Under the pieces are notes generated by a model. That model was not told the DNA's origin and made no database searches. It worked only from the letters and a program-made list of their open reading frames with translations. A stretch of 63,790 nt of DNA, the filler included, from Nemertoderma westbladi (taxonomy: Eukaryota > Animalia > Xenacoelomorpha), in the NCBI GenBank assembly GCA_032718475.1. It is 3 parts of 3 records of this genome, joined end to end, with 100 filler letters (N's around TTAATTAATTAA, not from the genome) between each part and the next. Parts side by side here need not be neighbours in the genome. Positions count along the whole stretch, not along the records: positions 1 to 25,990 come from JAUCBJ010000254.1; 2 more parts are not named here. One strand, 5' to 3'. This document shows, piece after piece, positions 357 through 56,773 of the stretch (its first letter is position 1; each line of letters begins with the position of its first letter). A program made the translations under genes and the position numbers.

Positions 357-950
357 CTACAGTACATCTTCCACCGCAGTTATTTCTTTCTGTTTATCAT
401 CATCATCATCAGCCGCAGTTAAACGCTTTCTCATGAAAAAGTGTAGAGCCTCAAACCAACCAACACGTTTTGCTGAGCAGTATCGCAGACAGTTATCCCT
501 TATGTTTAAGTGGAACGCGCATACTGTAGTGATTCGGTCGTGAAATCGACAAGGTGTTAAATAATCGTGATATTGCTTATATATTCCCAATTTCTCCACC
601 GAATTTGGTTCGAGAACATCGAGTTGGGAAACTAATATTGCCCGCTTCATCAACCCAAATACATGAATGTTTTTTTTATATTTTAAATGTCTCTTCATAT
701 ATTTTATAAAGTCATCTTGAGAAATGTCCCCATAGTCCCAGGGCAAGTGAGAACCCATATCTCGTAAATTGTTTACGTGAGCTGCATCTAAAGCTGATAA
801 CTTAATATTAGACGGGCCTTTAATTAAAAACGACTTTACATTAGTTTTGGTGTAATTAGAATCGTATATTGCAAATTCTTTAAATACTACCGGATACTCC
901 TTATTGTCTATCTTATAATATTGAAAATCAACAAAAATAATATTATCCAT
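357..950 (-). CDS. Polinton-associated protein, probable DEDD/RNase H-fold exonuclease-like
   Basis: Intronless 197-aa ORF packed next to the protease gene; N-terminal IFVDFQ...FKEFAI and LPWDYG patterns resemble exonuclease-like Maverick accessory genes (recognition, not a search). Confidence 0.5.
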   Translation of the reverse strand: MDNIIFVDFQYYKIDNKEYPVVFKEFAIYDSNYTKTNVKSFLIKGPSNIKLSALDAAHVNNLRDMGSHLPWDYGDISQDDFIKYMKRHLKYKKNIHVFGLMKRAILVSQLDVLEPNSVEKLGIYKQYHDYLTPCRFHDRITTVCAFHLNIRDNCLRYCSAKRVGWFEALHFFMRKRLTAADDDDDKQKEITAVEDVL

Positions 951-981
951 TTTATCTGATAAACAAAAGTTAAATAATTAA

Positions 982-1434
982 TTACAAAGTTTGTTGGTTT
1001 AATTTATAATAATTAACAAGCCATTTATATAATATAATTTCATTGATTTCCACATTATTTGTAAACGCCCTCATTGGATAGATTGTGTGAATACGATTTA
1101 CCAAATAATAGAGACAGTACAGACCGCATGTGGTCCTCCTGGGGTCTTGAAATTGTTTGCGTGTAGTACGCCACCTTGCGGAATTTTTCTCAAGCCATTT
1201 TTCGATGCATCTGTTTGGATATTTTGGTCCAAACGAGTCAAATACTTCAGCCTCATTATCTCGTATATATATCGCGATCCAATGAATCCCAGGCAGATGC
1301 TGTTTATCAGTATTTACTATCAAACCATAATCCTGCTGCTTATTATTATCTAATTTAGGTAATTTATTAGCTGGAAACGCGCCCAAATAGTGACCACCCA
1401 CTGGAAACATATCAAGGTCCTCTGTAGATAACAT
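982..1434 (-). CDS. Adenain-like cysteine protease (Polinton/Maverick virion maturation protease)
   Basis: Motifs IVNTD..PGIHWIA (His), FDSFG (Asp), FQ...TCGLYC (Gln/Cys); starts 2 bp after the capsid gene stop. Confidence 0.9.
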   Translation of the reverse strand: MLSTEDLDMFPVGGHYLGAFPANKLPKLDNNKQQDYGLIVNTDKQHLPGIHWIAIYIRDNEAEVFDSFGPKYPNRCIEKWLEKNSARWRTTRKQFQDPRRTTCGLYCLYYLVNRIHTIYPMRAFTNNVEINEIILYKWLVNYYKLNQQTL

Positions 1435-1436
1435 AC

Positions 1437-2696
1437 TTAATCGATATGTATTTCTTTCCTGCTATTTAAACTTAATGATTGATCATAAATATTAAAAACG
1501 ATTACATTTATGGTTTCAACCAACGGTTCAGCAAATCTTAATTTTAATTGACCGTTAGTATATATCGACGGTTGCGGATCTCTAACATAGCCGTCAGCGG
1601 TTAGGTCCCAGGATAGGATGGGACAATTACCTAAGTAGGTTTCATGGTCTATATTATTACCCCCATAACCGTTAATATATGTATTAATGTTCTTCATTAA
1701 TTGAGTATACTCAAAAATATATGTTCCATCTGTAAAATTAGGTTCGTATATTACACCCCCAACTGGAAGACCGTCTACAATCAGTTCCGCGCGTCTAAGG
1801 TTAAAATGTTCAAATTTCAAGGGATTGCTAATTAATTCTCCCGAATAAGCGTTATTTGTTATGAAGCCAATAATAACTAATTTGGGTTTTTTACCATCAA
1901 ATATGTTTGTTTGAGTGTAATTTGTGGTTTGAGCTGGAATAGTAAATGTAGTCACCTCTTTCTTTTGAAATTGATATTCAATATCGTAGCTCTCTAAACC
2001 TTTTAGGTGACTGCTTTCTATTACCGGATTAACCTCCATTCTAGGGATTAGAATTTTTATTTCATCTAATTCTAGTCGAAGATTTGTTACGGCGTTTGCG
2101 TTTGGTGTGATTTTAAAAATAAACGAATTTGATACTTTTCTAAAATGCATTCTTAAATCATACCCAGGTTGTATTATTTTAGTTTCAGTATCAAAATCAA
2201 TCGTCAATCCACTTACAAATTGCATTTGTTTACTAAAGGCGTCAGCAATAGGATGCGCGCCGGGATCAATTTCATTTCCGTGTTCAGATAAAGGTTGATG
2301 AAAGCCACCAGCACCCAGTAGCCCATTTTTATCCTCGTAAGTTGTAAATAATAAATTGGATAAGTACGACTTGTAGAAATAATGGTTATTGCTATTTTCA
2401 ACCTGCTTCTCATTAAGGTCTATTTTAATATCACTCCACATAGTTTCAGCTGGGTAATTCAGCATATAAATATGGGAGTTTTCAAGTCGTCTATCCCAAC
2501 GTACTGTACATTTTGTAATTAATAACGCGTCTTGCAGTTTCGTATAGAATTCATTGGATCTGGGTACAAGGAAGGTGACCTCCCTAGATTCGCTTCTGAG
2601 ATTAGATACAGGGTAAATTGTTTCATAATGTTTTGCTTTAAATTCAGTCTGTATTGGCTGTGTAGAAAATAAATCTAATTCCTTAATAATTGACAT
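1437..2696 (-). CDS. Polinton/Maverick major capsid protein (double jelly-roll, PY)
   Basis: 419 aa; ELDLF..PIQT N-terminus, YxSYLxxLL, PKLVIIGF...AYSG...NPLKFEHFNL, WDLT, LKLRFAEPL, all typical of Polinton MCPs. Confidence 0.88.
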   Translation of the reverse strand: MSIIKELDLFSTQPIQTEFKAKHYETIYPVSNLRSESREVTFLVPRSNEFYTKLQDALLITKCTVRWDRRLENSHIYMLNYPAETMWSDIKIDLNEKQVENSNNHYFYKSYLSNLLFTTYEDKNGLLGAGGFHQPLSEHGNEIDPGAHPIADAFSKQMQFVSGLTIDFDTETKIIQPGYDLRMHFRKVSNSFIFKITPNANAVTNLRLELDEIKILIPRMEVNPVIESSHLKGLESYDIEYQFQKKEVTTFTIPAQTTNYTQTNIFDGKKPKLVIIGFITNNAYSGELISNPLKFEHFNLRRAELIVDGLPVGGVIYEPNFTDGTYIFEYTQLMKNINTYINGYGGNNIDHETYLGNCPILSWDLTADGYVRDPQPSIYTNGQLKLRFAEPLVETINVIVFNIYDQSLSLNSRKEIHID

Positions 2697-2698
2697 TA

Positions 2699-3361
2699 TT
2701 AAAAAATACTTTTTTCGCAGTGTTTCAGTTTGCCTTTTATATTTCTCTTTTTACTACGTCGATGATGTATGTTCATAGACATTGGTCTAGCGGGTCGCTT
2801 TAAATCTCTATAAACTTTTTCTACAACCGACCTTGTTGATGGTTTCATTTTATTTAATGCTTTATTAATAACCGTATTAGCCTGCTGATGTAAGACTCGC
2901 TTACCTTTTGGTATTACGTGTTGTCTCATAAATTTTGTGGTAAATGGTAAAGCTTTCTGTAAAACTTTTTTAGCTAATGGCTTACCAAATTTTTTCAATG
3001 TAGATAAAGCGTCTGTAAATATACCTTCTCCGTGTTGATTTGCCTGCATACCTCTACGATAACGCTGAAAACGACGTTGTTTTAAGTTTGGACCAAATGC
3101 GCCAATTTGTTGACCGTAAGGGTCAATATATGAACCACCACGAAAAACAGGAACTTGCGCGGTCACACCAGTCTTGGGTCTGTCGTCCGGTCCCTGAAGT
3201 GGGGTATTAATGAATGTTTCCACAGCTCCTGGCTCCTCGTAAACACTACTCGAGCCAGCCTCGCTCTCTGACAGCCCCATCTGCGTCAGTTCCAGTCGGT
3301 GCTTCTGTTTTGCCTGGTACTGCATAAGCCCCCTCAACCGGGCGTGCATGTCATCCCGCAC
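2699..3361 (-). CDS. Polinton basic core/membrane-lytic-like precursor (C-terminal part; 5' part degraded)
   Basis: VPVFRGG...QHGEG followed by amphipathic basic helix IFTDALSTLKKFGKPLAKKVL; the frame continues upstream to about 3575 as E/R-rich repeats through two stops. Confidence 0.6.
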   Translation of the reverse strand: MRDDMHARLRGLMQYQAKQKHRLELTQMGLSESEAGSSSVYEEPGAVETFINTPLQGPDDRPKTGVTAQVPVFRGGSYIDPYGQQIGAFGPNLKQRRFQRYRRGMQANQHGEGIFTDALSTLKKFGKPLAKKVLQKALPFTTKFMRQHVIPKGKRVLHQQANTVINKALNKMKPSTRSVVEKVYRDLKRPARPMSMNIHHRRSKKRNIKGKLKHCEKSIF

Positions 3362-3826
3362 ACGTTTTCCCGTTATATCTCTCTCACTGTCCTCTCATGA
3401 ACTCTGCTCGCCCAATTCCGCCTCTCTCATAACTCTCTCAAGTCGTCTCGCCTCGCGCTCTCTTCGCTAATTCTCCTCTCTCGCCCCACGCTCTTTACGT
3501 TCTTTCTCCTCTCTCGCCTCACGCTCTTTACATTCACTCTCCGCTCTCGCCTCTCGCCTCTCTCGCCGCCTCGCGCTGTTTATTATTTTGGTTACTACGG
3601 GGACTGCTGGATGTCATTGTAAAGAAAGAAATTGAAAGAATTCTAGCGTTGTGGCTTTCCTCAGTTGCCAACTGAGGAATAGTAATTCATTCAATGCTCA
3701 GCAATATCCTTGTTTCATTGCTTATCAATTTTTCACTGCTTTACCGTAGGTTTGCAGTGTTTTCCCTGTGTCTGTATGATTTCATACAGTAGGAGTACAT
3801 TTACAGATCTGGGCAGCTAGGCTTGT

Positions 3827-5047
3827 TGTAAATGCTTTTGCGGATCTAGCTAGTCATTTTCCCCGCAAAGTACTCTTTAGGTGTTTTAGCGGACATAAAA
3901 AGCCGTTTTCTTACTGTGTAGGTGTTTTAGTGGACATAAAAAGCCATTTTTCTGTATGTGTACTTTAGCGGACATAACAAGCCATTTCATGCCGCAATAC
4001 GCCATAATACTCTTAATACAGTGTAGTTCAGATGACGACATCTATCAGCTGATATGTCGACGTGGAGCTTTTGGCTTTCTTTGTTCAGGCTCGCTCGACC
4101 AATCAGAGCTATTTTCATTTTATCTTGGACAGTGCCTATAGAAACTCATGCAATTCAGTCAGTGTGTATCTTTCTAAGCCCAGAACACTGGCTTAGGATT
4201 CTTCTGTACTTCTGTGGAAGTTTCAGACTTTGACCTAAACCTCAGAAACATCAGATGGCTTTGATCAAAGGAACGTAAAACTATTAACATAGCACACAGC
4301 AGACTCACGGCGCAGCACACCGCCACATCACGGCATCACGCAACGCGATTCAACTACACATACTGACTGTTCACTGCATTATTTGATTCTGTTATTAATT
4401 GGTGTTACTGTGTTATGTTGGTATATATTGCTGATATATTTGGAGAATACCGATGAATAATCATAAAACCCTCAATCTCTTTGATTACTAAAGGTTAGAG
4501 GAACAGGTTTACCGGTAGCAACTGCGACTTACATTATAGTGGTTTTTGTGTGAATTGAATGCTATTTCATAATCCCTACATGTGTCAGTTGCGATCCTCC
4601 TTATATATGATCAAATTCAGTGACGGTCGGCAGATCAGTGCGCAGTAGTGTGAACTAGTGTGAAGTCGTGTGAAGTAGTGTGAAGGTTAATAAAGCATCT
4701 CCTAAAGAATGCGCCTTTTACGAAACTCAGTAGCCATCCAGTTGTGATTAGTATAAGTCATAACTCTGTTTTATACTTAAAGCGCCACGTCCTAAAGGAA
4801 CTGTTAATATTTCCCCGAAAGTAAATATATTGTCAGAGATTATATATTAACGATCAATCGAATAATACAGTAGGTCTACACTGCAATCACTATCAAAGCA
4901 TCCGAATCCAGTCTCCCTTAACTGTGGGTGAATGGTCGCGCACAGGCTGGCTTCGGCTGATGTACCTTCAGTACATTAAATAATTGATATACAAAAAGAC
5001 ACCTAAAATTGGCAGGTTAAACTGCTAAAGGTCTAAAAGCGCGAACA
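3827..5047 (+). repeat. 5' LTR of element 1 (1221 bp)
   Basis: TGTAAATGC...GCGCGAACA; about 12 differences from the 3' LTR by eye; CCAAT near 4099, TATA-like near 4137, AATAAA at 4689. Confidence 0.97.
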
Positions 5048-7028
5048 TTAATAGTTTTAACTCCTGATTGCAGCGTAGGCAATAAATATTTTGTCTATTG
5101 TTCTGGTAAGAACAATAACAGTTATTCTTTCTTTATTGCAACGTAGGCAATAAAGGTAAAAGTACCGGTCGACCGGTAACCAGTAGGCCTAACTGCCTAA
5201 CCACCCGAACCGGTACTTACAGCAGTACAGGTACTAGTATTATTTCGATTGTGATATATTGTATATTGGTAGGCTGTTTAAGAGATTAGGGACTGTACAC
5301 CCCTTGTTTCTTTTGGAGCTTATTTATTTCTGTCAGTTTTATTTATTTGTAAGTTAATATTGAGCAGAAGGCATGTAAGCCTGCTCAGATTGTACAGATA
5401 ATTTGTAGGCTGGATTGTTGTCTGGCTGTTGTCAGGTCCGAAGAGATTGCAGTGTGTGTAGAGTGTATGTCCGATAAAGTACTAGTTAGGAACGTGGGGG
5501 CATCCAGTGCTGTAAGGTAAATCCCCCCCGAAAGAATAAGTCGTACTACTCGGTTAGAACGCATACTAACTAACCATTTCGGAGTCTGCATATACTGTAG
5601 TTTATTTAGGCTTGATAGTAGTCTGCCAGCATTTGGTTTGTATTTTGTTTGTGTAGTCTGTACGGGTAGCGTAATATTTATTATTCAGAGTTTATGCGAT
5701 TATTCGCAACATACATACCCCCAAGTTTATTCCTACAGTAATTGTGCTTGTTATACATACCGTTATAGTTAAATTAACCCCGGTACTACATCAGGGCTGT
5801 TCGGTGTAGGTAAAGACTGGTGATTTTATGCTCTGGTCACTCCGGCAGATACCGTGGTTCTTTTAGCTGTACAAGTATTTTTAACTGCTGGTTATTTGTT
5901 GTATAAGTACTTGTACCTAATTTAGGGTTTAGTGTACAGTGCTTTCCGAAGGTAATTAGTGTGTAGGCAGTATATTTGTGTTGTAAAGTGGTTAATAGGC
6001 ATGTTAGCTATAGTAGGCTGCGGTAATTAACTTCTAGGTAGGAACACTCCGGGTACATAACGTAGTACTTATAGCGCTACGGCTATAAGTCGTCAAACGG
6101 TGGTATTTTTCCTATCTAGACAACGCAATATATTTACTACTGCTTTATTATTTTCAAATACCGTAGTATCCTGTCCGTTTGTAATAACCAGATATTCTAA
6201 CTCCTTGTTAGGCTGGTTTGTAGATTTCTTGTAAAATTAACCCTAAAAATTCGTACGTGTAATTTTTTGTGTTTATTTAGAGATTGTAATCTCACCCCGT
6301 AATTGTACGTAATTTGTAGTAATAAGTAACTTAGGCAAGTAGAATTATTTGTTTTAGTGTCCAACAAGTAGCACTTCACTGAGAGTGTACAGCTTCTGTG
6401 AAGTGACTCCTTACCAGAAATAATAACATTTATTTCAAACATTGACAAAAACCCATTATACGGGTATATATATTATAAATCAACTCAAATCGATTTATAA
6501 AATAGTAGGCCTGTTATACATCAATTAGGTCTTAATATCAGTTGGACTACTGCCTAAATAACGGTAATAAAGTAAATTAAAGTAACTAAGTAACCCTAAA
6601 AATTCAGAAATTCAGTTATTATAAAATAATTGACATACCGGTATTTACGATAGGCTTATTATATTTATTTCTATAAATTTATGCTGAAATTATATACCAG
6701 TATTCTGTAATTAATTTTATGTCTATAATTATACTTATATATACTATAAGTGTAAGCTAAACTGTATACTGGTATTCACAGTAGGCTTATCATATATTTA
6801 TATATATTTGCACTGAAATTATATACTGGTATTCTGTGACGAAACCTAGTCCGTAATAATACTTATATATACTATAAGTGTATACCGGTATTCTAATATA
6901 TTGTATATATATCGCGTTACATAGAGTAACGATATCGGTAATTAATTACTAGGCTAACAGTGATACTGAATTACTAGACTTGCTTTAACTGTAGTTCTAG
7001 CAGTAGGCATTCAACTGTATAAACAAAC

Positions 7029-10000
7029 ATGTCTGACACAAAGCAAAACCTGTCAGACAGTCTCCTAGATACAACCATCTGTGATCCAGATAGGAGTGCG
7101 GAACGTTTGAGACCGAAGTTCAACTCCCCTCCTACTGTAAGAAAGGTCACCCATCCAGTAGTAGTATCAGACCCTAGGCTAGTCAAACACCGTAGGTCTA
7201 TCATAGGCACTCGGGCTCAAGTCAAGCAGGACCAAGAAGCAGCTGTTAAACAGCAGCAACACCCGAGCCGAGAACTTATTTCTCAGTGGCCCGATAGCTC
7301 CAGTAGTTTGGATACTGTAGAGCTGACACCCGAGCGCGGAGCAAAGATGGCAGATGCGGTTTATTCGGATCCCCTTCTCATTCTTCCTGCAGCCGTACTC
7401 ACTGGGGTATTGATTGCGGTGGAGGAACACCAAATTGATTGGGCGAGAAGTAAGCGATCGACCAAGGACAGTTATGCGGGATACACAAGGGAGGAACTGA
7501 AGTCTATTGTTGAGACGCAATGGAACTTCCCCGGACCCGGACTCCCGTTTAACTTATCGGAAGCTGCCTGGGAGGACTTATACAGGATGGGAGTGACAAA
7601 GGACACTAGTGATCCAGCTGTATGGAAGAGGTCGGCAGCAGGATATGTACAGGGATTCTTCAGCTCTTTGGAGCGATTAGAGGAACAACTGTTTCAACAA
7701 CACCAAGGACCTCAAGAGCAGGGAGAGCTGCTTTATAGGAGAGTTCATGGAAGAAAGCCCGAGGAAAGAACGAGTGTGCACAACATTAACAAAGGTAAAG
7801 TAAGTAACATCAAACCAAAATGTGCATTGTGCGACGGGCCCCACCGTTTAAGTGTGTGTGATGAATTCTTAAAGAAATCCTTAAAGGATAGATGCAAAGT
7901 CATGTGGGATAAGCAGTTGTGTTATAATTGCCTCAGACAAGGACACCAACGGCGAACCTGTTACTCCGATGCGAGGTGTGCTAAGTGCGGCACGAAACAT
8001 CATATCTTGTTGCACACTGAATTCGAAAGAAACAGCCCGAGTCAGGTAAGTGAGTCCGAACTACATGTCCAATTCAGTGATGTGAACGACACTGACCAAA
8101 GTTCTGAGATGGAAGGATTCTATACGGATGAATTCTCCGACGAAAACGAATCCTGTTACCTAATAAATACCGCAGTATATCGAGCACTTACGTATGAGAA
8201 AGAAACCGATAGTGAGCTCCCCCTAACTACTCCTGACCGACAACCATCTTGGAAAGCACCAACTTCCAACATAGGAATCCGAGAATTTCCCGTAGTGCAG
8301 TTGAGAGTCCACGGGTCAGAAAAGAGCTATATAGTGAATGCCCTCCTTGACTCCGGCAGCACAGGAACATTCATCGACAAAGAACTAGCCGAAGACATCT
8401 TTGCTGGACAACCCAAGTTCCGAACTAAGTTGAACATGTCAGGAATTATGCAGGTTTGGAAATCTACAGTAACTACAGATTACTATGTAGGCGCGTTGTC
8501 CACCCCCCAGGATGAACTAGGAGAACACAGTATAAGGTCAGTAAAAATGGTGGCGATAAAGAACTTCGCTACCAGCCAAGTGGAACCTTATAACTGGGAT
8601 GAGGACGATTTCACCCAGCAGCATAAGATACCTAGATTCAACACAGACTACCCTGGAGTGCAAATACTCATCGGCCAAAATGCGCATGAGGCGCTTAAGA
8701 CATTGGAAAAACGGCCTGCTCAACCGCAACCACTACAAACCTATGCGGGAAGAACTAGAGTAGGTTGGTACTTTACTGGACCTTCCCGTAGAACTCTCAT
8801 GGAAAGGCTACCCAAAGAACGGGTCTACCAGGTGAGTGAATGGGATGAGGAGATCAGTGAGGGAAACGACACACCTGAGGGAACACCATACTCCTCAGAT
8901 AATGACGATATCCACCAACTATTCGACAAGGAGAATACCATCGACCTCCTTACGGAAAATGAAACTTGGCAAAACCAAGTGAACCTATGTCACCTCATCC
9001 ATCCAGCGGGACACGTCGATTACAACGACGAACTGAATGAAGTGATAGATCGTTACAACGCGAAGACTCGCGATGAACACGACGTATGATTATTTACTCA
9101 AGAGGCTGTGGAGCCCAATTCCTACGATAAGGCCCTATCGGTAGAAGAAGAAAGAGCCAAGCAGATCCAGGCAACGACGACACGTTTCCTTAAAGATCAA
9201 GGGAGGTATGAAATTGGTCTGCCATTTCGAAAACGAGAACCTAATTTTATAAACAACTGACCCTTGGCGGAGAAAAGAATCGCGCAATTACATCGACGCC
9301 TTACGGCAAATGCTTCAGCAAAAGAGATGTACAAGACACAGCTGACGAAATTCATAAATAAGGGATATGCGGAGCGAGTACCGGAAGAAACACCCATAAC
9401 TGAGAGAACGTACTATTTAACCCATCATTACGTTCACAAACCCGGTAAACCCAACGAAGTTTGGGTAGTATTTGACGGCTCCGCCCTATACATGGGCCAA
9501 TCACTTAATTCGGAGTTGTTGCCGGGACCCAACTTACTCCAATCCTTGTTGGGAATACTCTTAAGATTACGACAATATTTGATCGCCTTTGCCTCGGATA
9601 TAGAAGGCATGTTCTTACAAGTTAAGGTGCTGGATAGGGATCGAGACAGCCTACGATTTCTGTGGTGGCCTGAAGGAGACCTCAACCAGAAACCGGTGGA
9701 GTACTGGATGACCATCCAGGCTTTTGGGATCATCTCGAGCCCCTCAAACGCCTGCTCAATAGTGCGTACCACTGCTGATGACAACCGGGACGCCTTCTCC
9801 AAAGAGGTTATCGACAACATCAAACGGGATATATACATGGACGACAATTTAAAGTCCCTCCCATCGGTGGAAGAAGCCATTGATGTCGCCAAAGGAACGG
9901 TAGAGTGCTTAAAAAGAGGTGGATTTCGATTAACTAAATTCACCAGCAACTCCCGTGAGTTTCTGGAATCGATCCCGGTAGAAGACCGAGGAGTTAAAGA

Positions 10001-12066
10001 TCTAGACCTAATCAAGGACGATCTTCCAGAAACCAAGATGCTTGGTTTGAAATGGGACACGGAGAGAGATATCCTGTTTTTCCAGCTAAAACAGGGAGAT
10101 AATCCAATTCGAACGAAACGGATTTGTCTAAGTATCCTGAGCACTTATTTCGATCCATTGGGATTTATTAGTCCAGTTATATTGATTGCTCGGAGTTTAG
10201 TACAACAAATGTGGCTTGAAAACCACTCGTGGGACGATCCACTTAAGGGAGAACTACTAAAGAAGTGGATGAAATGGGAAGATTCTCTACCATCCATCGA
10301 GAATTTTACGATTTCCCGTTCTTAATTTGGTCACGTTCTCCCCACGTATTCCTATCAACTCCATGTGTTTGGAGACGCCAGCGACATGGGAATAGGTATA
10401 GTAGCCTACCTGAGGGTTGAAACTCCGGATGGAATTAAGGTCGCCTTGGTTACCTCTAATCGGACCTCTAACCTGGAATCGGCTTTGTAACTACTCCAGG
10501 ACGAAGATCGCTAGCGATACCGCTCCACCGACATCTGCGCACATCCATGTTGTTAAAGATCTTCCCAAATACAAGATATCAGAAAGATTTCTGAAGGAGA
10601 AAATCAGCTACCAGGAGCATAAAGAAACCAATAAGCAGATACTGAGACTCCTGCAATGCTATGAGGATTCCGATAAGTATTTCCTGTTGTTGAGAAATCT
10701 ACAGATGCGCTTAAGGGATCGTTTCTCTAGCACAATGATAGATGGGTTGATACGTGTTGGAGGAAGACTAACTAATGCTCCATTATCCTTTGACACTAAG
10801 TTCCCCATACTCATTAGAAATCTTGAAATACAAATCAAAATGATTGTAGATGTTCACAGTAAGCTTTACCATGCTGGTAGAGAACGAGTTCTTAGTGAAA
10901 TTCGAACTCGCTATTATTTTCATAAACCCCGTAGAGCTCTGAACCAAGTTCTTAGGAACTGTATCCCCTGTAGGAAAGCATTCAGTAGGCCTTTAACACA
11001 GCGAGAGGCAGAATAACCTAGGGAACGAGTAAGCTTCTATGAACCACCCTTTACTAATACCGGTGTGGATTTATTTGGCCCTATTGAAGTATATCGTGCT
11101 AGGACTATAGTCAAGCGATGGTGCGTCCTCTTTGTCTGTATGACTTGTAGAGCTATCCATCTCGATATGGTGAATGATCTATCTACCAACAGCTTTATAC
11201 TGAGCTTACGCCGACAGATCGCTCGCTTTGGAACTAGTAATACGATGAGATCTGATAAGGGAACGAACTTCATTGGCACCAACAATGAAATCAAGGCTTA
11301 CATCAAAGATTGGAACCAAAGACAGGTGGACGATCAGCTAAGGGTAACAGCGTCTAGCTGGACCTTCAACGCCGCCGACGCCCCTTGGTGGGGAGGAAGT
11401 TGGGAGAGATTAATCAGGAGCGTGAAGACCACATTTCACTTTATAGTGCCGTGCCGCGCGTATCTCACCGATGAACTTTTGCGGACGTTAATGGAGGAAA
11501 TCGCCGCCTATCTCAACGAGAGACCGCTTATGCCAGTCTCATTGAGTCCCGACTCCCTGGAAGCGCTAACACCCGCGCACTTCCTACTGAAGAAACCTGT
11601 AGCCATGCTCCCACGATCGGAAATCATGGACGGAAACGAATACTGCCAGCAAACTTGGCAACTTATGCAGTTGTTATCCCGTCGTTTTGCTGACCATTTC
11701 GAAAAACATTATCTGCCTACGCTACAACTTCGAACTAAGTGGTTTGCGCAGCAAGAAAACGTCAGTGCCGGAGACATGGTCCTTATTGTGGATTCAGATC
11801 TTCCACGTAAGCGGTGGCAGACAGGTCGTATCATCGAGACTCATATCTCGGATGATGGTTTGGTGCGATCGGTAGAACTCGTCGTCATGCGACGTAACTT
11901 TAAGAAACTGGGAATTGTCTTCGAGACACAGCAGCTCAATCGCCCAGTTGGTCGTTTATGTTTACTGGAAAGAGACAGAGAACTCTCCGGAAACTATGGA
12001 AGGCAAGATACTCTTCCCACGACCACCTCCCTAATCCAACAAACATCTAGGGACTCCCCAACGTAA
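7029..12066 (+). pseudogene. Bel/Pao gag-pol polyprotein, disrupted
   Basis: Three Cys/His zinc knuckles, protease LLDSGS, RT DIEGMFLQ/YMDD, FDPLG, RNase H start HVFGDAS, integrase HH-CC and DLFGP/SDKGTNF/WE. In-frame stops at 9087, 9258, 10323 and 11014, plus a deletion/frameshift near 10460. Confidence 0.95.
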
Positions 12067-13462
12067 CAGCGTCTGGAGTGGGTGTGTGACTATATTATTA
12101 TTTTATATTTGTTTTTATTATTTTATATTTATGTATGTATTATTATGCAAATTTATTATAATCGTTTTCTTTAATTTTATTTAGTAGAATGTTATTTTAG
12201 CGATTATTTAGTAGATTAGTGCAATATATATTAATGTTTATTACTTACTTACTTATATTATATTATATATTTAGTGCAACGGCGAGAAATAATTATTTTT
12301 CTCTTTCCTTACTGTCCGTATCATATTATAAATACGTGACTATAGTAAGATGAAATGTCCGTACTTATTAAAGTACAATAAAGCTCCTACTATATTTAAG
12401 TATTATTGGTAAGTAGAGTATTAGGAATGCAAAGTTCAGATCCTCCTGTCTCAGCTAAACCAAGCTATGGGTAGACCTTGGAAACGACTTGCCTCTTCTC
12501 ACTGACATTGTTTCTTGCAATATTGCTCTCATACCGTATATTAAATAATACATATAGTAGCGTGATGTCCTTTTAACAGTAGCGTAAAACGCAAAATAAA
12601 TCTGTTAAACCCTTTGACCATCTGTAATTCTAGTCGATTAAGATATCGCGGCACCCACCGATATACTTAAAAGACAAAATTCTAGAATCAGTGGTTAACG
12701 TCCCCAGACAAGTTCTGGAATAAACCGGTGCCCATCTTAAATATTAACTATTAATATTTATAAAATCTTTCAAATAAATACAATAGAGTAACCACAGTAA
12801 CCACATTAGTGTGCGAGAATCTCCAATATAGTCAATAGCCGATAAAATTCATAAAATCATGTATAAAGAGGAATTTTGACAATTAAAGAATTACTATTAA
12901 ATAGCATCCCAGATCTGTATGCATGAGAATTACCCTAATTCTACTGCTAGCTTTCCATAATGTCACCATGGCAACAACCACGCTAGAATTAGAAGTGAGT
13001 TAAAAGAACAATAAAGCTTGCCCCATTGAATAGCATAAGGAATAAATAGCACACTGCTAGTATCCAAGGATACCCAATAATAACGTGGCATTCTGGAAGG
13101 CACTTGACTAACGGACAAATGGCCCGAATGTGTACAATTTGTGACAGTTGTGTGGAATTTGTGCATTTATAGGTGAATGTTACTACTAAAGTGTGTTTAC
13201 AGTAGCGAGTCGCAATTGTGAAAGTAGCCCTACCTCTGCAGTAAGAACCTGAAGTAAATCTTAGCCCTTGGGACGGACAGTGGAGTGACTCGCGCTGGGT
13301 GTTGTGGTCGTTGTGCAGCTACTATGTTGGCGATAGGCACATCGGCGAAAGTACATCGGCGCTGAGGATCTTGCGCTGTCCGAGGGCCGTGAGGGGTAGG
13401 CAGCGACGCCCGCTAGCCTAATTATAAACTCATTATAATATTGATAAACTCAAATAGCAGCT

Positions 13463-15013
13463 ATGACTGAGTTGATAGAAGATGATCTTGGTATCAGGGA
13501 GCGATATACTCTACCGTTGCAAGCATTTGTTGATAGCTTAATACGCGGCGACGCTGGTCCAACTACTATGGAGGACTATGGTCGTTATATCGAACCGCCA
13601 ATGTCCCAGGAGCAACTCACTCGTGAATTGGACTATCGAAAATTCACTGCTCGCTATACGCATCGTAATGGTACGCATATGGACTTCTTAACTACTGGTC
13701 ATCCTATCGATTTACACAATACGGACGATGTCGACACCGAAAGGGAAATGGCCCTGTTTAAATATCCTACCCAGCAGAGTCGGAACGATAAACTGAAAAT
13801 CGAATGCGAAAATTCTATTCGAAATCGACTCGAAAGAGAAGACGTTGAAGAACCTGATAAACACAGTGACTTCAACGTATATTTGGAATTCTTGAGAGAG
13901 ACATTGTAAAACTGGAGAAAGATCACCCGCGTTTCCCCTACAAGACGTGCGTCTTTGGTATTATTACGATGAATGCCCTAGACCCAACCAACACACGGAA
14001 AGACATAAACATCTGCGGAGACGTTGCGCTAAACACAGTTTTACTCGCTATATTTACAGTAGTTTCGAGAGAAACTTGTTCAACGTATCACCTACGCTCG
14101 TTCGACTCAAACGATCCTTAAATAAACCTATGATCAGAGTTCTGGAATACTCGGTCAGACCTCCTCATTCCCTGGTGAGACCTCAGACTCTTGATCCTAA
14201 TAGTATCACGGATCCTCCCGAGCTGTACTCACTGTTCAAAGATCTAGTGTTACCCGAACAATTAGTCGGTGGCACTCCGGTTGTGGGCTCCCTAAATATT
14301 CGCCCATCTTACCTATCCGGATTGGGACGCGGACACCTAATATCGCCATTCAACCGTATAATCGTCCCTGTTTAACCCGATATAATCTGTCACCGAAGTG
14401 GAGGAGAAAATTGTACGCACGCGTTAGACACTATTCGATAAAAGATGGGAAAAGGAACCTACGATTGCTTAGAAAAACGTAAATTGCAGCAACAAGTCCA
14501 AGCGGTAAACGAATTAGCTTTATATCAGTTCGATCGGGAAATCCAGAATCTCTAAGAAGATATCGAACTTGGACGACCCTACTCTCTAAACGAGTTTTAG
14601 ACGAATGCTTCCAACGACAAGCGGAGGAAAATCAGCTCAAGGAGAAGCATATCGATTTCGACAGAGCCCGAGAACTCGAGTCGGAAAGAACCATCAAACC
14701 GAGGAAATTTCTCACTACACACGGTCCACCTACCGCTCTTGTGCAGACGAATCGTCAGGGACCAGTAAGAGCTGCTGTCTTGAAACGTGCTCTGAAGGTT
14801 GTTCGACCTCGTTCCACTGAGGTTGATACCGATCAACCGGGTACCTCGACCGGCGGATACACCGACCGTCATCCTAAACCTTCCGATGCAATTGTATTGC
14901 ACCCTACACCCAGGAGTTATAGCCCTCCTAGTAAAGTGGCTCGCCCCAAAGAGAAAAGGACTCTTGCTAGCCTCAAAAAACTGCGTAAACGCTGTTCGCG
15001 TAAGAAGGACTAA
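13463..15013 (+). pseudogene. Accessory ORF3 of the Bel/Pao element (about 500 aa, frameshifted, unknown function)
   Basis: ORF pieces 13463-13909, 13947-14375 and about 14590-15013; the C-terminal frame is conserved with mostly synonymous changes in element 2 (26092-26310). Confidence 0.65.
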
Positions 15014-15091
15014 CTGTTTAGAGTATTTTTATATTTTAGAAACTGTGATTTTTTATATTTTATAGAATTAAATCCCATTTTCTGGGAGCGG

Positions 15092-16311
15092 TGTAAAGGC
15101 TTTTGCGGATCTAGCTAGTCATTTTCCCCGCAAAGTACTCTTTAGGTGTTTTAGCGGACATAAAAAGCCGTTTTCTTACTGTGTAGGTGTTTTAGTGGAC
15201 ATAAAAAGCCATTTTTCTGTATGTGTACTTTAGCGGACATAACAAGCCATTTCATGCCGCAATACGCCAAAATACTCTTAATACAGTATAGTTCAGATGA
15301 CGACATCTATCAGCTGATATGTCGACGTGGAGCTTTTGGCTTTCTTTGTTCAGGCTCGCTCGACCAATCAGAGCTATTTTCATTTTATCTTGGACAGTGC
15401 CTATAGAAACTCATGCAATTCAGTCAGTGTGTATCTTTCTAAGCCCAGAACACCGGCTTAGGATTCTTCTGTACTTCTGTGGAAGTTTCAGACTTTGACC
15501 TAAACCTCAGAAACATCAGATGGCTTTGATCAAAGGAACGTAAAACTATTAACATAGCACACAGCAGACTCACGGCGCAGCACACCGCCACATCACGGCA
15601 TCACGCAACGCGATTCAACTACACATACTGACTGTTCACCGCATTATTTGATTCTGTTATTAATTGGTGTTACTGTGTTATGTTGGTATATATTGCTGAT
15701 ATATTTGGAGAATACCGATGAATAATCATAAAACCCCCAATCTCTTTGATTACTAAAGTTTAGAGGAACAGGTTTATCGGTAGCAACTGTGACTTACATT
15801 ATAGTGGTTTTTGTGTGAATTGAATGCTATTTCATAATCCCTACATGTGTCAGTTGCGATCCTCCTATATATGATCAAATTCAGTGACGGTCGGCAGATC
15901 AGTGCGCAGTAGTGTGAACTAGTGTGAAGTCGTGTGAAGTAGTGTGAAGGTTAATAAAGCATCTCCTAAAGAATGCGCCTTTTACGAAACTCAGTAGCCA
16001 TCCAGTTGTGATTAGTATAAGTCATAACTCTGTTTTATACTTAAAGTGCCACGTCCTAAAGGAACTGTTAATATTTCCCCGAAAGTAAATATATTGTCAG
16101 AGATTATATATTAACGATCAATCGAATAATACAGTAGGTCTACACTGCAATCACTATCAAAGCATCCGAATCCAGTCTCCCTTAACTGTGGGTGAATGGT
16201 CGCGCACAGGCTGGCTTCGGCTGATGTACCTTCAGTACATTAAATAATTGATATACAAAAAGACACCTAAAATTGGCAGGTTAAACTGCTAAAGGGCTAA
16301 AAGCGCGAACA
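15092..16311 (+). repeat. 3' LTR of element 1 (1220 bp)
   Basis: Direct repeat of 3827-5047, followed by TSD CTTGT. Confidence 0.97.
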
Positions 16312-17679
16312 CTTGTTGATTCTAAGCAATAAATACATTAAATATCCTGCTGATAATTTTTATTCATTGTTGTTTTCCTAATCTAGAACGCCCACAATCT
16401 CCCTTTTGTTCTGTAACATGATTGACCTGTACCTTTATAGTTTATCCCACTGCAACAGCAACTTTTACTGTTGGTGTTGGGTGCAAACCCTTCGCCCATC
16501 GCCCGCAGGCAATGTTTACCTGCTATAAGTGCTAATTAGCCTATCCGATAACAGACAAAAGCAGTAGGGTGGTTCTTATTTTAGGTAAAAATCTATTTTT
16601 ACCTCAAAATAATGTTTCAAATAGCACAAAAACATGGCAAAGAAAGCTTCTGAAAATTTGAATGAGTTTTGCCTAAGAGGCGCCACACTTGACTGGAGGT
16701 TTTAACTGATGCGGATGCGGCTATGTGGTATGAGCGCCTATATCCTCAAGTTTGGTGGTGACCAACTCCTGGTACACCTATTATTGCATTGCCTTTAGGC
16801 TCATTCGAACCACAATGATCGATTTAGTAGGGTTAGACTAGACACCTTCAAAGTACAGGAGCAGGTTAATCTTTCAGTGGGTTGTAACTATATATAACCA
16901 AAACAATAAACGGGAGTCATAAAAACAAGTTACAGTTGAGTTTCTTCATAATCAGCTACATGATAACTTTGAGTTATTATTTAAGGGCACGTGTTTGTGA
17001 TAAAAATTGAAAAAAATTCAAAATTCTTTTACGGATTCGGGATCAAAAGCGAGATAATAGCGAGATATCTTTTAGTTCTCGAGTTATAGCTATCTGACTG
17101 CCTGTCAGTCGGTCATTCTGACAAAATTAAAGAAAAACATATGTATTGCACAATTGTTTCTGTTTAGTGATCACATTTCTAATAATGTCAGTTTTAATGT
17201 TTCATGCATTTTTGATTGTCTCTCTTTCTGCCTGCCTGTATGTCTGTAAATCTGCCTATCTATCTGTTTGTTGGCCTGTTTGTCAGTCAAAATAATGAAT
17301 GAAATACACAACTGAAAATGTTTTTGTAGGGGTTTTCCTGGTCTATGATTCCATTTCGGATGTATGTTTTAACGGTTAAAGGGTTTTGACGGACCTACCG
17401 TCACGTATACTGAACAATACAAAGCCATTATATTTGAATACTACTGTAACATCAGAAATGGAATCACCGACAAGGAAAACCCATTTAACTAAAATTTTGG
17501 CGAGGTCGTGTCCTTTCCTAAATTTCGACAGACAGACGGACAGATTGTCTGATATACAGAGAGACTGACAATTATACAGTCTGGGATTCACTTACCCCAA
17601 GTATTAGGTAGTTAATTCATTAAGTACCAAACATTTTGCTCTGGCGAAGATTGGATGCGGGCGAAGTTTGCTGCATAGG

Positions 17680-23216: not shown

Positions 23217-24400
23217 ATGGATCATCATATTAATTTATTGAAAGAGAAATCATCTGGCGCCGATATAGTTATAAAGAAAGAACAAACTGATTGTGCCTCT
23301 TATGAACCCCTTGGAGATTCTATTATTGTCGAAAAACGGGAAATCGACAGCCCAGACTGTTTGTATGGTAGGCCTATTGAAACTGAAGGTACAGAGCAGA
23401 CAATGAGTTGTTCAACAACAGAGTCCGGTAGTTCTAATGAAACGGTTTGGTATCTTCTTCAGATACCAGTTCCTGTTTGCATTGCAATGAATTATTTAAT
23501 AACAAAGGAAATTTAAAGGGACATATAGAATCCGTTCATAAAGACGTCAAGAATAAGTATAAATGCGATTATTGTAAGAAACTGTTTAAATGGAATAATG
23601 CTTTAAAGAGGCATGTTGGTTCTATCCATAAAGGTATAAAATATAATTGCAGTTATTGTCATAAAGATTTCAGTCATCAAGGCAGCCTAAAGACCCACGT
23701 TGACTTTGCCCACAAATGTATAATCAAGTATAGCTGCTCCGATTGTGGAAAATCATTTGAAAGAAAAGCAATACTAAAACTACATGTCGACTCTATACAT
23801 AAAGATATCAAACATAAGTGCGGTTATTGTCATAAAGAATTCAGCCAGCAAGGGAGTCTAAATACCCATGTGAACTACTTTCATAAAGATATCAAGTACA
23901 ACTGTTTCGATTGTGGAAAATCATTTAGTACAAAAGACGCTCTAAAACGACATGTCGACTCTATACATAAATATGTCAAACATAAGTGCGTTTATTGTAA
24001 TAAAGAATTCACCAAGCTAACGAATCTAAACATACATATCAACTACGCCCATAAAGATATCAAGTACAACTGTTTTCATTGTGGAAAATCATTTGCTAGG
24101 AAAGCCGAACTAAAACAACATATCGAATCCGTTCACAAAGATATAAAACATAAATGCGATTATTGTAATAAAGAATTCAGACAGCAAAGGAATCTAAACA
24201 CTCACATTAACTTTGCCCACAGAGGTATCATCAAGCATAGCTGCTCCGAATGTGGAAAATCATTTGCTAGAAAAGCCGTACTAAAACAACATGTCGACTC
24301 TATACATAAAGATATCAAATATAAGTGCGGTTATTGTCATCAAGAATTCAGTCGACAAGGCATTCTAAACAGCCATGTCAATTCTGTTCATAAATCGTAA
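23217..24400 (+). CDS. C2H2 zinc-finger protein (about 11 fingers), probably two exons
   Basis: Repeated CxxC-x12-HxxxxH in 23447-24400; the upstream frame from ATG 23217 joins in phase via phase-1 GT donors (23368, 23389 or 23428) to acceptor TCTTCTTCAG at 23462. Confidence 0.85.
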
Positions 24401-25990: not shown

Positions 25991-26090
25991 NNNNNNNNNN
26001 NNNNNNNNNNNNNNNNNNNNNNNNNNNNNNNNNNTTAATTAATTAANNNNNNNNNNNNNNNNNNNNNNNNNNNNNNNNNNNNNNNNNNNN
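25991..26090. other. Artificial contig spacer
   Basis: 100-nt N run with central TTAATTAATTAA (stops in all frames). Confidence 0.95.
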
Positions 26091-27639
26091 CAGAGCCGTT
26101 ACACCCCTCTCCCCGGACGTTGATGTCAATCAACCCGGTACTTCGACCGGCGGATATACCGATCGCAATCCCATACCTTCTGATGCAATCATATTGCACC
26201 CTTCACCCAGGAGTTATAGCCCTCCTAGTAAAGTGGCTCGCCCCAAAGAGAAAAGGACTCTTGCTAGCTTCAAAAAACTGCGTAAACGCCGTCCGCGCAA
26301 GAAAGACTAACTGTTTAGAGTATTTTTGTATTTTAGAAACTGTGATTTTGTATATTTTATAGACTTAAATCCCATTTTCTGGGAGCGGTGTAAAAGCTTT
26401 TGTGGGATAACTGATACGTTTGCCTTTGCTGGCCAGTTTCCCCACAGGCGCTGGAATACTCTAAAAAAGGTTTTCTAACTGTGTATATATTCCCCTCGCC
26501 CGCAAGGTACCTTTACAGGTGTTTTAACGGACATAAAAATCATTCTGCTATATACGTGTTTTAGCGGACATGGTAAGACAAAAACTTGTAATGCAACAAC
26601 CACCTTTCACAGCTTAGCCGTGATGATTCATATTACGACATCTAACAGCTGGATGCTGACATGGAAACAGCCATTGGACGCGTGGTTCTTTGTTTGGCTT
26701 GGGCCAATCAGGGCGGTTTTTCCTGTCGACGTGTAGCTTTTCTGCCGATCATAAGGAGAGTGTTGAGTCTTACAGCTTTTTCTTGATACTTTGTTGTTAT
26801 TGCTGTCTAAGCCAGAAACACCGGCATTTTTAGATGTATGATACTGCTGTACCGTAAACTGCTTGAATTATCGAAAGTATAAACTGTTACCGGCGGCGGT
26901 GTCACCTTACTTAATTAACATACTCACTTAATTTAATTGTGTTAATCATATTGTTTATACTGTTATTTTACCGTCAGTTATTAATTGTAAATATTTGTTG
27001 ATGGAAATATTGCTATTTGGATAATACGGATAAATCACCCAATTCCCAAATTTCTTGATAACACTACAGGTTAGAGAGACCGGCTATACATAACAATTGC
27101 GATTTATATTAATGTGGTGTGTATTGAATCCAATGTTATTTAGCAGACCCTACGTGAGTCAATTACTGCTCTCTTTATGTGTGATCAAATGTACTGACTG
27201 TCGGCAGAATAGTGTGTATGATCGTGACTGGTAACAAAGTATTTCCTAAAGAATACGTTTTATACTTTAATCATCAGCAGTATCGTTGCGTTTAGTATAA
27301 GTCTTAGTTCTGTTTAAATAGATAAAGCGCCACGTCCTAAAGGAACTGTTAATATTTCCCGAAAGTCAATAATATCTGTCAGAGATTAATTATTAACGAT
27401 CTATCGAATAATACATAGGTATACACTGCAACCTTACACTGTAATAATACAATTCAAGCATCCGAATTCAGTCTCCCGGGTGTAGATCCATCGGGTGAAT
27501 GATCGCGCATGGGCTGACTTCGGCTAATGTTTTTCGTATTAGCATAAATTATTGTCGTATGCTAAAGTGGTTTTAATTAATTAGAAGACATATAAAATTT
27601 GGCAGGTTAAACTGCTAAAGGTCTTCAAAAGCGCGAACA
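26091..27639 (+). mobile_element. 3' end of related Bel/Pao element 2 (ORF3 tail 26092-26310, PPT, LTR 26389-27639)
   Basis: High similarity to 14810-15091; LTR TGTAAAAGC...GCGCGAACA, divergent from element 1 in its middle part. Confidence 0.92.
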
Positions 27640-28330
27640 GAAGGGATGTTCGACAGTTAGGCGGATATGTACGACAGATAGTACGTGAGTTAAGCTGGGA
27701 TGTACGACAAATAGACTGATATGTACGACATATAATACGACAGTTAGGAAGGGATGTTCGACAGTTAGGCGGATATGTACGACAGATAGTACGTGAGTTA
27801 AGCTGGGATGTACGACAAATAGACTGATATGTACACATATAATACGACAGTTAGGAAGGGATGTTCGACAGTTAGGCGGATATGTACGACAGATAGTACG
27901 TGAGTTAAGCTGGGATGTACGACAAATAGACTGATATGTACGACATATAATACGACAGTTAGAAAGGGATGTTCGACAGTTAGGCGGAGTTGTACGACAG
28001 ATAGTACGTGAGTTAAGCTGGGATGTACGACAAATAGACTGATATGTACGACATATAATACGACAGTTAGGAAGGGATGTTTTCGTACATCCCAGCTTAA
28101 CTCACGTACTATCTGTCGTACAACTCCGCCTAACTGTCGAACATCCCTTTCTAACTGTCGTATTATATGTCGTACATATCAGTCTATTTGTCGTACATCC
28201 CAGCTTAACTCACGTACTATCTGTCGTACATCTCTGTTTATCAGCACATCAGTACATCTCAGTCTAACTGTCGTACATCTAAGCCTTACTGCCATACTAG
28301 TTGTCGTACATCTCAACCTAACTGTCGTAC
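27640..28330. repeat. 108-bp tandem repeat (4 copies) followed by inverted and degenerate copies
   Basis: Unit GAAGGGATGTTCGACAG...CAGTTAG with GATGTACGACA subrepeats; orientation flips at about 28081. Confidence 0.9.
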
Positions 28331-28416
28331 TTTCTTCGTAATTGTATATAAATTGAATCTCCTGTTTTGTAAGGGTTTTGTAATTCCTTTATATAAATGT
28401 AGTTGGTCGTAGAAAA

Positions 28417-31781: not shown

Positions 31782-32780
31782 CACCTCCTGATTTAGCCCC
31801 GGGCACCACTTTAGCTCTGCACGCCACTGACACCTAACCATAACACATGGACGATTCAATTATTCGCCTATCCTACCTAAATGACTTCCTAATTCGCTAA
31901 ACGGTTCGTACACAGAATGGTTCGCCCCACAATGATACAATATTCTTCAAAGATTTAAAATGTAGCCCATAACAATGTTCCACCCATAACTCAGAAAACC
32001 ATAGCATATACTTAACGGTAGGAGATCCCTATCGCTTAGACCCATCTGTGCTGTCCCTTTGCATGAGGTCATTGAGGTCTCACGTGTGCGTTAAAGAAAC
32101 CTGTGGTATGGGTCACTGGTTGTTTGCGGCCGAACCGATAGTCCGTCACATTGTTGCGTCCGGTGTGGATAAAATCAAGCTCCGGTTGATTTTTATATAT
32201 TTGTGTCCGTCACTGTAGGAATATATTATACCTACGGAGGTTCAGTCATACGAATTCATTAATACAATAGACCTGGCACACTCTACCACGAATCTTTCCG
32301 GCAAACTACTCCAAACAATAACGGTATCACGCCGAGTTAATATACGCCAGAACTCACTGGCCAACTCATTTAGTTTAAATGGACAGGCGGAATGATTGAT
32401 TGAATAGTGACGGGTTGGTGAGCGTAATCGTAAGACTACACTCGTATCAATGACCGAACACACAACCATAATATGTCAGTGCCAAGAATTTTAATGATGT
32501 TGATTGTTCTTAGAATTTAGGTGGAAAAGTGAATCAAGTTATATTTATTGATGTTCCTGTACTTTAGTATATCCAAATTTATTGAATACCTTGTAACATC
32601 ATTGATAGAGCCATAAAAGTTATTTCTATTGCTAGTATTATTCAAATATTTCACCTAAGTGTAACTTTATTTATTTTATCTGACATCTAACATTTTTTCC
32701 CTGACATTAATTTATTATCGGTTGATTTATATATTGTAAATAATTAATAAAATCGAACTCAATTAATTTATAACCAAAAT

Positions 32781-35700: not shown

Positions 35701-36182
35701 TAGTTCGAGGAAATTGCACAAAGACCATGTGTAATGCAGCAACAGCAAACCACAGTCGGAACATTCTAGCGAAAGCATTGTATGCTAGAACTCTTATTTC
35801 CCTTAATCGAAGGATCAACAATCCAAAACGACCTTTAACTCCCAACAATTCGAGTAGAGCCAGTGATTCCAGCGAATCTGTGCCACCCATGATGCAACCG
35901 CAGACAGCTGAGAACTTTCTCAGTATAGGGCTACCTAAAATCAATGGCAATGCAGCTAACAAGGAAGAACCATATGGGTTTATAGGAATTGTGGATCTAT
36001 TTGGAACTGAAGATGCCAACCCAAATAGTTTAGAACAACTTTGCATTAACCTTTGCACAGAGACTTTAGAATACTTCTACACAACCAATGTGTTTCGCTC
36101 TACGCAGGATAACTGGCGTGATGACTGTGTATCCTGCGATATCGAGCTCAGTTACCATGACAATGGGCCTTGCGTGGAGTGA
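32781..36182 (+). CDS. dachs: Unconventional myosin, dachs-like, motor domain incomplete
   Basis: Long low-complexity N-terminus and coiled coil; P-loop GVSGSGKT, NSSRLG, NYHIFYQMLAGL, DLFGTE, LEQLCINLCTE; ends at DNGPCVE*. Confidence 0.75.
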   Translation: MFRRKSNSKRSSAEDHGYTSESAAHHRSSRHKYRGHTATSHSDHEDQVKTGKHSAKSKSSSSDRYRNSNPLEDYFIPPSNPRIFIERNEKGNNMSGSGESLVKPRPDLVQHVNNVVPPDLPPKKTGRGHSSDVEMEGTRRRTNNANRRTTYYSDDERIRSSDVNGSPGSAVGSLDHLLADKRSASIKPRLAPILQSNMLQTNKSNQQGVEYIRATAGVTPYGRNNHRNEPPINSPQKPAVTRAFPSDIRFAAVSKGVSGFQPYKPPGVPQRHHSADDILAANRSIGSQQHQKPVHMPSNNAEKDQQHQKPVHMPSNNAEKDYIIVGNQRFSYVNNIFDKSDHKDAKNYDTSAYNLGKQRKLSSSKSVSSHYSQDAISRSTTDYPTVGQQSASSIAYHSSKPNTTHGSPLRHHNVAMVRPQKISDNIVLRGSSVSSQNGRLDDTSNSQLGRDTHAMRNISFPHNNDDVAIATLGSLSGGYHNTNGYNVTTTDMDLRDEQSVFSQDVESMAEDLAAQKKAYNKLLEAFRMFRDEDAYQLIKEKEISKKLAEDNHSLSSELEELSKKMFEKRKHVTSPLTISPTKSVIVELTKITNSLGDIYNKVNPLAKKLSDVINAKGSNVSQTVVQLQNHLKCISAEIISLRGLLSSKINPRDVNARNKDSPKSENVMNDLIHMQCILSEANIVDILEKMFTNSQNFIWDGPVLLNINGTFDPANSEAILSAPRYNAGENLEKLVYRLVSEYIETNTSQVVILNGVSGSGKTHLAQSIIRVIYERNSSCGTHSEIYKQMAAGVCILQAFTTCHTPTNFNSSRLGFFYEIQMHKYQLIRTKFNSYFLDQSRITDRPWAEGNYHIFYQMLAGLSYDERSKLHLSGYTAQSLTFLKYKCADGYGAAVGNPSESFSQWRQALASLGIPFEDVTRVLSAIMLLGNVEFIESNETMDLDVKGHDEIKSVAALLGVSGVSLYRGLTTRTVVVRGNCTKTMCNAATANHSRNILAKALYARTLISLNRRINNPKRPLTPNNSSRASDSSESVPPMMQPQTAENFLSIGLPKINGNAANKEEPYGFIGIVDLFGTEDANPNSLEQLCINLCTETLEYFYTTNVFRSTQDNWRDDCVSCDIELSYHDNGPCVE

Positions 36183-47021: not shown

Positions 47022-47121
47022 NNNNNNNNNNNNNNNNNNNNNNNNNNNNNNNNNNNNNNNNNNNNTTAATTAATTAANNNNNNNNNNNNNNNNNNNNNNN
47101 NNNNNNNNNNNNNNNNNNNNN
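47022..47121. other. Artificial contig spacer
   Basis: Same N-TTAATTAATTAA-N linker. Confidence 0.95.
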
Positions 47122-56469: not shown

Positions 56470-56737
56470 TAGGCGAGTCAATCTAGCCGAAAAGGGTGTC
56501 AACCCATAACAAATTCGCAATTCATCCAAACAATGTTTTTTATTCTACATTACCTTGTTAACACACCCAAAATGTCTATAAAAATATATTATGCGGATCA
56601 CCTTCAATTTCCTGTTTCTTTCCTTAGCAACATGGATTTTACATAGCAACAAGGGGTCTATTGGTGGGATTTTCTCCAAATTTGGTACAGACAAACTTTA
56701 CTCTAATGACTATCGATTGACTAAAGTATGCATGATA

Positions 56738-56773
<36 letters not shown>

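Follow-up and report, generated by a model that had tools for sequence, protein, structure and literature searches.

The primer-binding site (PBS) of a Bel/Pao family of LTR retrotransposons from Nemertoderma westbladi (Xenacoelomorpha; GenBank assembly GCA_032718475.1) is the exact complement of a segment within the element's own long terminal repeat (LTR), and this arrangement is real and not a product of chance. The stretch of 63,790 nucleotides in which the family was analysed is hereafter referred to as the window. That the family primes its own reverse transcription in some form is considered very probable. The reading preferred here, to which a probability of roughly 0.58 is assigned, is that a self-primer lying internally, about 100 bases into the RNA, would have its 3' end generated through a cut by the element's own RNase H and would prime without a tRNA. 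The self-priming interpretation of the original prediction is supported at the level of sequence, and the self-complement is probably part of a lineage-wide mode of priming. The novelty lies in the Bel/Pao group, in the predicted long 5' extension and in the splice-built form of the primer.

The window joins three contigs, the spacers of N between them occupying 25991-26090 and 47022-47121, and holds three elements, of which the features of elements 1 and 2 lie on the + strand and those of element 3 on the - strand. Element 1 (3827-16311; 12.5 kb) has paired LTRs and is flanked by a 5-bp target-site duplication, CTTGT, at 3822-3826 and 16312-16316. Its 5' LTR (3827-5047; 1221 nt) begins with TG and ends with CA, so that both the LTR termini and the duplication agree with the description of Bel/Pao elements. 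The 3' LTR (15092-16311; 1220 nt) is 99.0% identical to the 5' LTR (12 differences) and directly follows a short purine-rich tract (15078-15091) which resembles the tract in relatives. Element 2 is represented by its 3' LTR only (26389-27639), which is also preceded by a purine tract, its PBS falling outside the window, and element 3 by a 5' LTR of 1217 nt (47251-48467), which together with a short leader spans 48467-47122. Over the last 600-700 nt the LTRs of the three elements are 69-72% alike, and upstream of this they diverge. Comparison of the LTRs revealed a block of about 32 nt (4778-4809) that is invariant in all three, in LTRs otherwise about 70% alike; within it lies a branch-point-like motif, about 30 nt upstream of an acceptor-like site that is also conserved. 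A short inverted repeat at 4178-4192, upstream of the primer segment, is by eye also kept in all three LTRs amid divergent sequence, and a hairpin just past the PBS occurs in two copies in element 1 (5061-5092 and 5130-5163) and in one copy in element 3.

The surroundings of the elements were also inspected. Beside element 1, open reading frames (ORFs) at 357-3394 on the - strand include a match to an adenovirus-type C5 protease (982-1461), and element 1 probably sits inside a Polinton-like element. Elements 2 and 3 adjoin tandem-repeat arrays (27640-28340 and 48467-50540), as do the relatives L005 and L007 discussed below, and an insertion bias toward such arrays is possible. A long tandem array with a 24-nt period occupies 36190-41000, and long open frames at 23441-24400, 32751-36182, 52383-53210 and 56725-59112 correspond to a C2H2 zinc-finger protein, a myosin head, a dynamin-like GTPase and PIP5K.

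On the evidence of its predicted proteins, the window family is placed in Bel/Pao as a variant, with the PBS as the point of departure. The first frame of element 1 (7029-9089) encodes Gag, with three Cys/His clusters recognised by eye, and an aspartic protease, while Pol (9261-12066) is found in pieces interrupted by stops and frame changes, comprising a reverse transcriptase (RT) with YMDD, the Pao RNase H region (PF05380), an integrase zinc finger (PF17921) and DUF5641. The closest homologues are Pao polyproteins at 40-47% identity, the order Gag-PR-RT-RNase H-IN is accompanied by the Pao families PF05380 and PF18701, and no match to a chromodomain or other sign of a Gypsy chromovirus RT was obtained. 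The host is an animal, the neighbouring PIP5K gene being nearest to animal proteins at about 55%. The ICTV profile of the Belpaoviridae gives an 18-nt PBS for tRNA-Arg or tRNA-Gly and calls replication poorly understood (PMC8742986), in agreement with the statement in the original prediction that Bel/Pao elements are described as tRNA-primed. The window family resembles that profile in its animal host, LTRs of up to 1.2 kb, domain order and Pao-specific Pfam families. It departs from the profile in that element 1 carries no such 18-nt site, in the 12.5-kb length of element 1, in a 2-kb leader and in 3' ORFs downstream of the integrase. Three of these ORFs (153-176 aa; 13448-15013) gave no Pfam match at E-values up to 1 and are possibly an extra gene of the window family. 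In the RT tree the window family forms a long branch; the tree, built with no named reference elements for the Sinbad, Suzu, Sparrow, Surcouf, Dan and Flow clades, resolved neither its kinship with the junction-type families described below nor a named clade.

The PBS of element 1 (5048-5059) is of a non-tRNA type and lies flush with the LTR end, TGG being absent from the first nine leader bases, in line with the lack of a TGG tRNA-type PBS stated in the original prediction. The exact 12-nt reverse complementarity that it had reported between this site and 4276-4287 was confirmed, the pairing opening immediately past the terminal CA and extending no further than 12 nt. The latter segment, the predicted self-primer, occupies LTR positions 450-461, 760 nt before the LTR end, and the same 12-mer recurs in the 3' LTR at 15541-15552. 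Element 3 likewise repeats the arrangement with a different 12-mer, its PBS (47239-47250, - strand) being an exact complement of its own LTR segment (48016-48027, - strand; LTR positions 441-452, 765 nt before the LTR end); the two elements differ at 4 of the 12 positions, every change on one side of the pairing having its counterpart on the other. Dinucleotide shuffles reached at least 12 nt in 5 of 20,000 cases for element 1 and 7 of 20,000 for element 3, and pairing of each PBS with the LTRs of the other two elements is limited to 4-6 nt. An unpaired C follows the primer segment in elements 1 and 3. An LTR-adjacent PBS complementary to the own LTR, as is characteristic of Tf1/sushi elements, is present in this family. 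Searches of elements 1 and 3 for a splice-built primer, made under both relaxed and strict definitions of splice sites, found none; the conserved donor at 4494 therefore does not build their primer. That donor-like site, present in all three LTRs, and a conserved acceptor-like site which is weak and pyrimidine-poor delimit a possible, predicted LTR intron 3' of the primer segment (4494-4836). In run X1 (share 0.14; contigs only, and RNA only as a guess), the element 3 PBS and a third PBS variant starting TTAA were found on one contig each, with no partner LTR seen for the latter; none of seven joints was GT-AG, and depth over the 12-mer region was about 1, a result that carries no weight in either direction.

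An RT alignment was used to collect 97 loci from distant relatives, of which 17 lie on genome contigs and 80 on metagenome contigs. Loci L001-L017 are Bel/Pao elements in contigs filed as bacterial MAGs in a species-representative collection, and the occurrence of Bel/Pao relatives in microbial assemblies is probably due to contamination with animal DNA. The main test covered 30 of the 97 loci. The LTR end was set by an LTR pair in 19 of them, four of these ends being shifted by hand (three by one base), and by eye in 11; L002, L004, L014 and L074, in which the repeats gave no resolvable LTR ends, were left out. The textbook splice-site filters were written after the pattern had been seen by eye and in a relaxed scan.

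The original prediction had named the lack of the complement in further subfamilies as the outcome that would speak against it. Instead, 16 of the 19 relatives with LTR-pair ends carry an exact self-complement of 10-13 nt (several loci in the collection being near-identical copies), and a TGG tRNA-type site was found in one of the 19 (L062), being absent from the other 18 as well as from the window family. Twelve of the 16 match only across a predicted donor-acceptor junction in the LTR and four are contiguous, while all 11 relatives with LTR ends set by eye match over at least 10 nt, every one of them in the junction form. In the null set of downstream leader windows, matches of at least 10 nt were obtained in 0 of 1,118 cases across a junction and in 4 of 1,118 cases of either kind; swapped leaders matched in 11 of 420 cases, eight of which paired families with a common primer. 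L051 has an 11-nt match across an acceptor that the filter missed and L003 has one mismatch in 11, and a later search by motif, in which an AC end was required, yielded a further 1 of 11 and 9 of 41 among the loci left over, its misses being loci that may not hold an LTR at all. The predicted LTR introns of the relatives measure 67-1022 nt. Exact scans for the invariant LTR block gave no match in viral or metagenome contigs, and no relative was found in a protein scan of viral contigs.

Both sides of the pairing have changed across the junction between the sister elements L005 and L006. L090 has an acceptor in its 5' LTR (1-326) and a contiguous primer in its 3' LTR (near 6694-7103), the two LTRs being 88% alike, an apparent case of precise intron loss between two copies. 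Contiguous forms are placed at three positions on the tree and the TGG type among the junction types, with modest support. In the latter family, nested among junction-type relatives, the TGG tRNA-type site lies at offset 5 (L062:56-75; L084:18-40), and a switch back to tRNA priming is possible.

Several features of the helix bear on its role as primer or structure. Among 23 chosen representatives, a set selected for pairing, 229 of 230 base pairs in the first 10 helix positions are Watson-Crick and none is G-U; the edges of the helix are sharp. The 23 representatives yield 19 distinct 11-mers, which argues against a single host RNA. The helix, 10-15 nt in length, always begins 0-5 nt past the LTR end and is found where TGG is lacking. 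G-U pairs do occur, by contrast, in the U5 helices predicted for the window LTRs, as in a hairpin close to the LTR end that all three LTRs keep (5009-5028), and 5 of 55 predicted U5 pairs show double changes over the three sequences. In 22 relatives, poly(A) hexamers number 21 in the 2,916 nt downstream of the primer against two in the 9,873 nt upstream, as strand transfer requires; the three window LTRs lack a conserved poly(A) signal. A primer ending in UUAA, as originally predicted, holds for the window family and is not general, since the predicted primers end AC in every relative represented. The window family is further set apart from its relatives by the absence of an intron at the primer, a primer end of AA with an unpaired C next, the lack of a spacer, the conserved donor-like site 3' of the primer, the long RT branch and a distance from primer to LTR end of 760 nt as compared to 44-216 nt.

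According to the preferred reading, transcription would start near 4165, as suggested by the TATA-like box and the relatives, and 4276-4287 would then pair with 5048-5059, a predicted helix for which both complementarity and covariation are observed. A cut after 4287 would free a 3'-OH by analogy with Tf1, minus-strand synthesis would cross about 760 nt of R-U5 before transfer to the 3' R, and the last 11-12 primer bases would be copied into a new PBS during plus-strand synthesis. Internal cleavage had been put forward in the original prediction, next to a short LTR-encoded primer RNA, as a mechanism not known to be described; a precedent exists in Tf1, where the available part of the report places an RNase H cut between bases 11 and 12 (PMC7175516), and this cut and a three-duplex pretzel around the PBS are described in the accessible portions of the Tf1 literature (PMC7175516; bioRxiv 10.1101/2022.12.06.519325). 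Copying of the primer into the new PBS is described for retroviruses in the part of the source at hand (PMC7472051); such copying would hold both sides strictly Watson-Crick and would explain the covariation. For most relatives, the primer would come into being only once the host has spliced the LTR intron, the window family having the contiguous form. A broader proposal is given slightly better than even odds: that a large marine Bel/Pao branch swapped tRNA priming for a primer assembled by the spliceosome from two LTR exons, with replication gated by splicing, and that the window family represents a derived state, its primer being contiguous, cut a base earlier (ahead of the conserved C) and acting over 760 bases.

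The position of the primer in the RNA is central to the choice between this internal primer and a plain Tf1-type arrangement, considered unlikely, in which the RNA would start at or just before the 12-mer and its first 12 or so bases would be the primer. The predicted promoter comprises CCAAT (4099-4103) and a TATA-like box, TATAGAA (4137-4143), 139 nt upstream of the 12-mer; the original placement of the 12-mer about 110 nt past an apparent start thus refers to a predicted and not to a mapped start. The window boxes are weak and, at -139 in element 1 and -107 in element 3 (by eye), unevenly spaced, which favours a Tf1-type start, as does the agreement of the 11-12-nt length with Tf1; against such a start, no TATA match occurs at -25 to -35 from the 12-mer in elements 1 or 3, and the first exon of the junction-type relatives would be only 3-7 nt. 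TATA matches were found in 8 of 23 relatives, seven of which have one 124-240 nt upstream of the primer, a spacing that also counts against the Tf1-type start; L006 has another at -26, L003 has matches only at -44 and -54, and 15 of the 23 have none. A second helix 5' of the primer, which likewise speaks for upstream sequence in the RNA, is enriched at a mean z of -1.16 over 25 elements that are not all independent, and falls short of significance when elements 1 and 3 are taken on their own (z of -0.4 and -0.7). Equilibrium RNA folding, which is unreliable over long range and ignores nucleocapsid, gave the unspliced primer helix of element 3 a probability of 0.94 only when the 12-mer opened the RNA, two earlier starts giving 0.00, in favour of the Tf1-type start, but gave that of element 1 a probability of 0.00 for all three starts, including the one at the 12-mer. 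With the predicted LTR intron removed, the values were 0.61-0.94 for three upstream starts in element 1, and 0.92 only for starts within 30 nt in element 3 (0.00 at 110 and 60 nt upstream); in spliced relatives, the helix reached at least 0.4 in 10 of 15 and was not predicted in five. In comparison with the pretzel, U5-end helices are predicted, and for the duplex 3' of the PBS the predicted partner lies upstream of the primer and not downstream of it.

Poor predicted folding in cis over 760 nt is a point in favour of a primer acting in trans, a separate short LTR-derived RNA (from a solo or 3' LTR, or a spliced RNA without the PBS) with its 3' end made by host processing or trimming and not by the element's RNase H. 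The presence of the 12-mer in the 3' LTR fits such an RNA, and the donor-like site 3' of the 12-mer in all three LTRs could give primer-bearing RNAs without the PBS. Yet no 3'-end signal is seen at 4287, and among the relatives the distance from the end of the primer to the poly(A) hexamer is 0-133 nt and the next base is variable, so that a precise cut would still be needed; a trans primer is considered unlikely. A structural or regulatory helix acting in packaging, translation or a splicing switch, with priming by something else, is judged improbable. The structured U5 with its double changes is in its favour, and the invariant LTR block of element 1 can pair over 11 nt with the PBS by way of three G-U pairs; this competing site, however, fails to pair in element 3, and the fixed onset of the helix just after the LTR, its narrow range of lengths, the absence of G-U pairs, the fixed end dinucleotide and the absence of TGG speak against such a structure. 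Priming by half of a host tRNA, or by another small RNA, with the self-complement incidental, is regarded as highly improbable, even though tRNA priming is given for the family by ICTV (PMC8742986), half-tRNA priming is known in Copia lineages from the available part of PMC6317226, and L062 and L084 carry a TGG site. Against it stand the absence of TGG from the window family, the variety of 11-mers among relatives and a PBS that differs between subfamilies, each matching only its own LTR. Read as anticodon arms, the two 12-mers are a poor fit to tRNA structure, which also counts against a host RNA. No tRNA gene lies within the window, and no Rfam match was obtained in 3800-5400 at E-values up to 5, a search too insensitive for 12 nt.

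Self-priming is known in Tf1/sushi, Tcn1 and Copia TAR elements, as set out in the accessible part of PMC6317226. The internal self-primer preferred here shares with Tf1, Tf2 and Tj1 of the Tf1/sushi group (Ty3/gypsy chromoviruses) and with plant Tcn1, as far as the available texts describe them, an 11-12-nt LTR-adjacent PBS complementary to the own RNA, the lack of a tRNA site and the need for a cut to provide a 3'-OH. It differs in belonging to another superfamily, in a primer predicted to be internal, in extra predicted 5' pairing and in the predicted splice junction that it spans in most relatives. In the TAR lineage of Ty1/copia (Houba, Osr-1), self-priming was likewise predicted from LTR-PBS complementarity alone; the domain order is that of Copia, the hosts are plants, and the portion of the source available describes no splice-built primer (PMC6317226). 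PBS, primer and tRNA are not mentioned in the Bel/Pao surveys PMC3118150, PMC6238403 and PMC8556966; PMC554778 mentions only PCR primers, the available part of PMC8220671 refers to the PBS only generically, and Bel/Pao LTRs are not modelled in that of PMC3601003. No account of self-priming in Bel/Pao elements, or of a primer built by splicing, was found in the literature covered, which was partly in excerpt and did not extend to subscription journals, Repbase Reports or GyDB.

If the preferred reading is true, self-priming would extend to a third superfamily of LTR retrotransposons, in which the primer would be internal and, in most relatives, splice-built, and reverse transcription would be tied to host RNA processing. 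The elements would be free of host tRNAs and hence of silencing by tRNA fragments, and the failure of tRNA-based annotation to find a PBS in them would be accounted for. The reading also yields exact predicted RNA ends.
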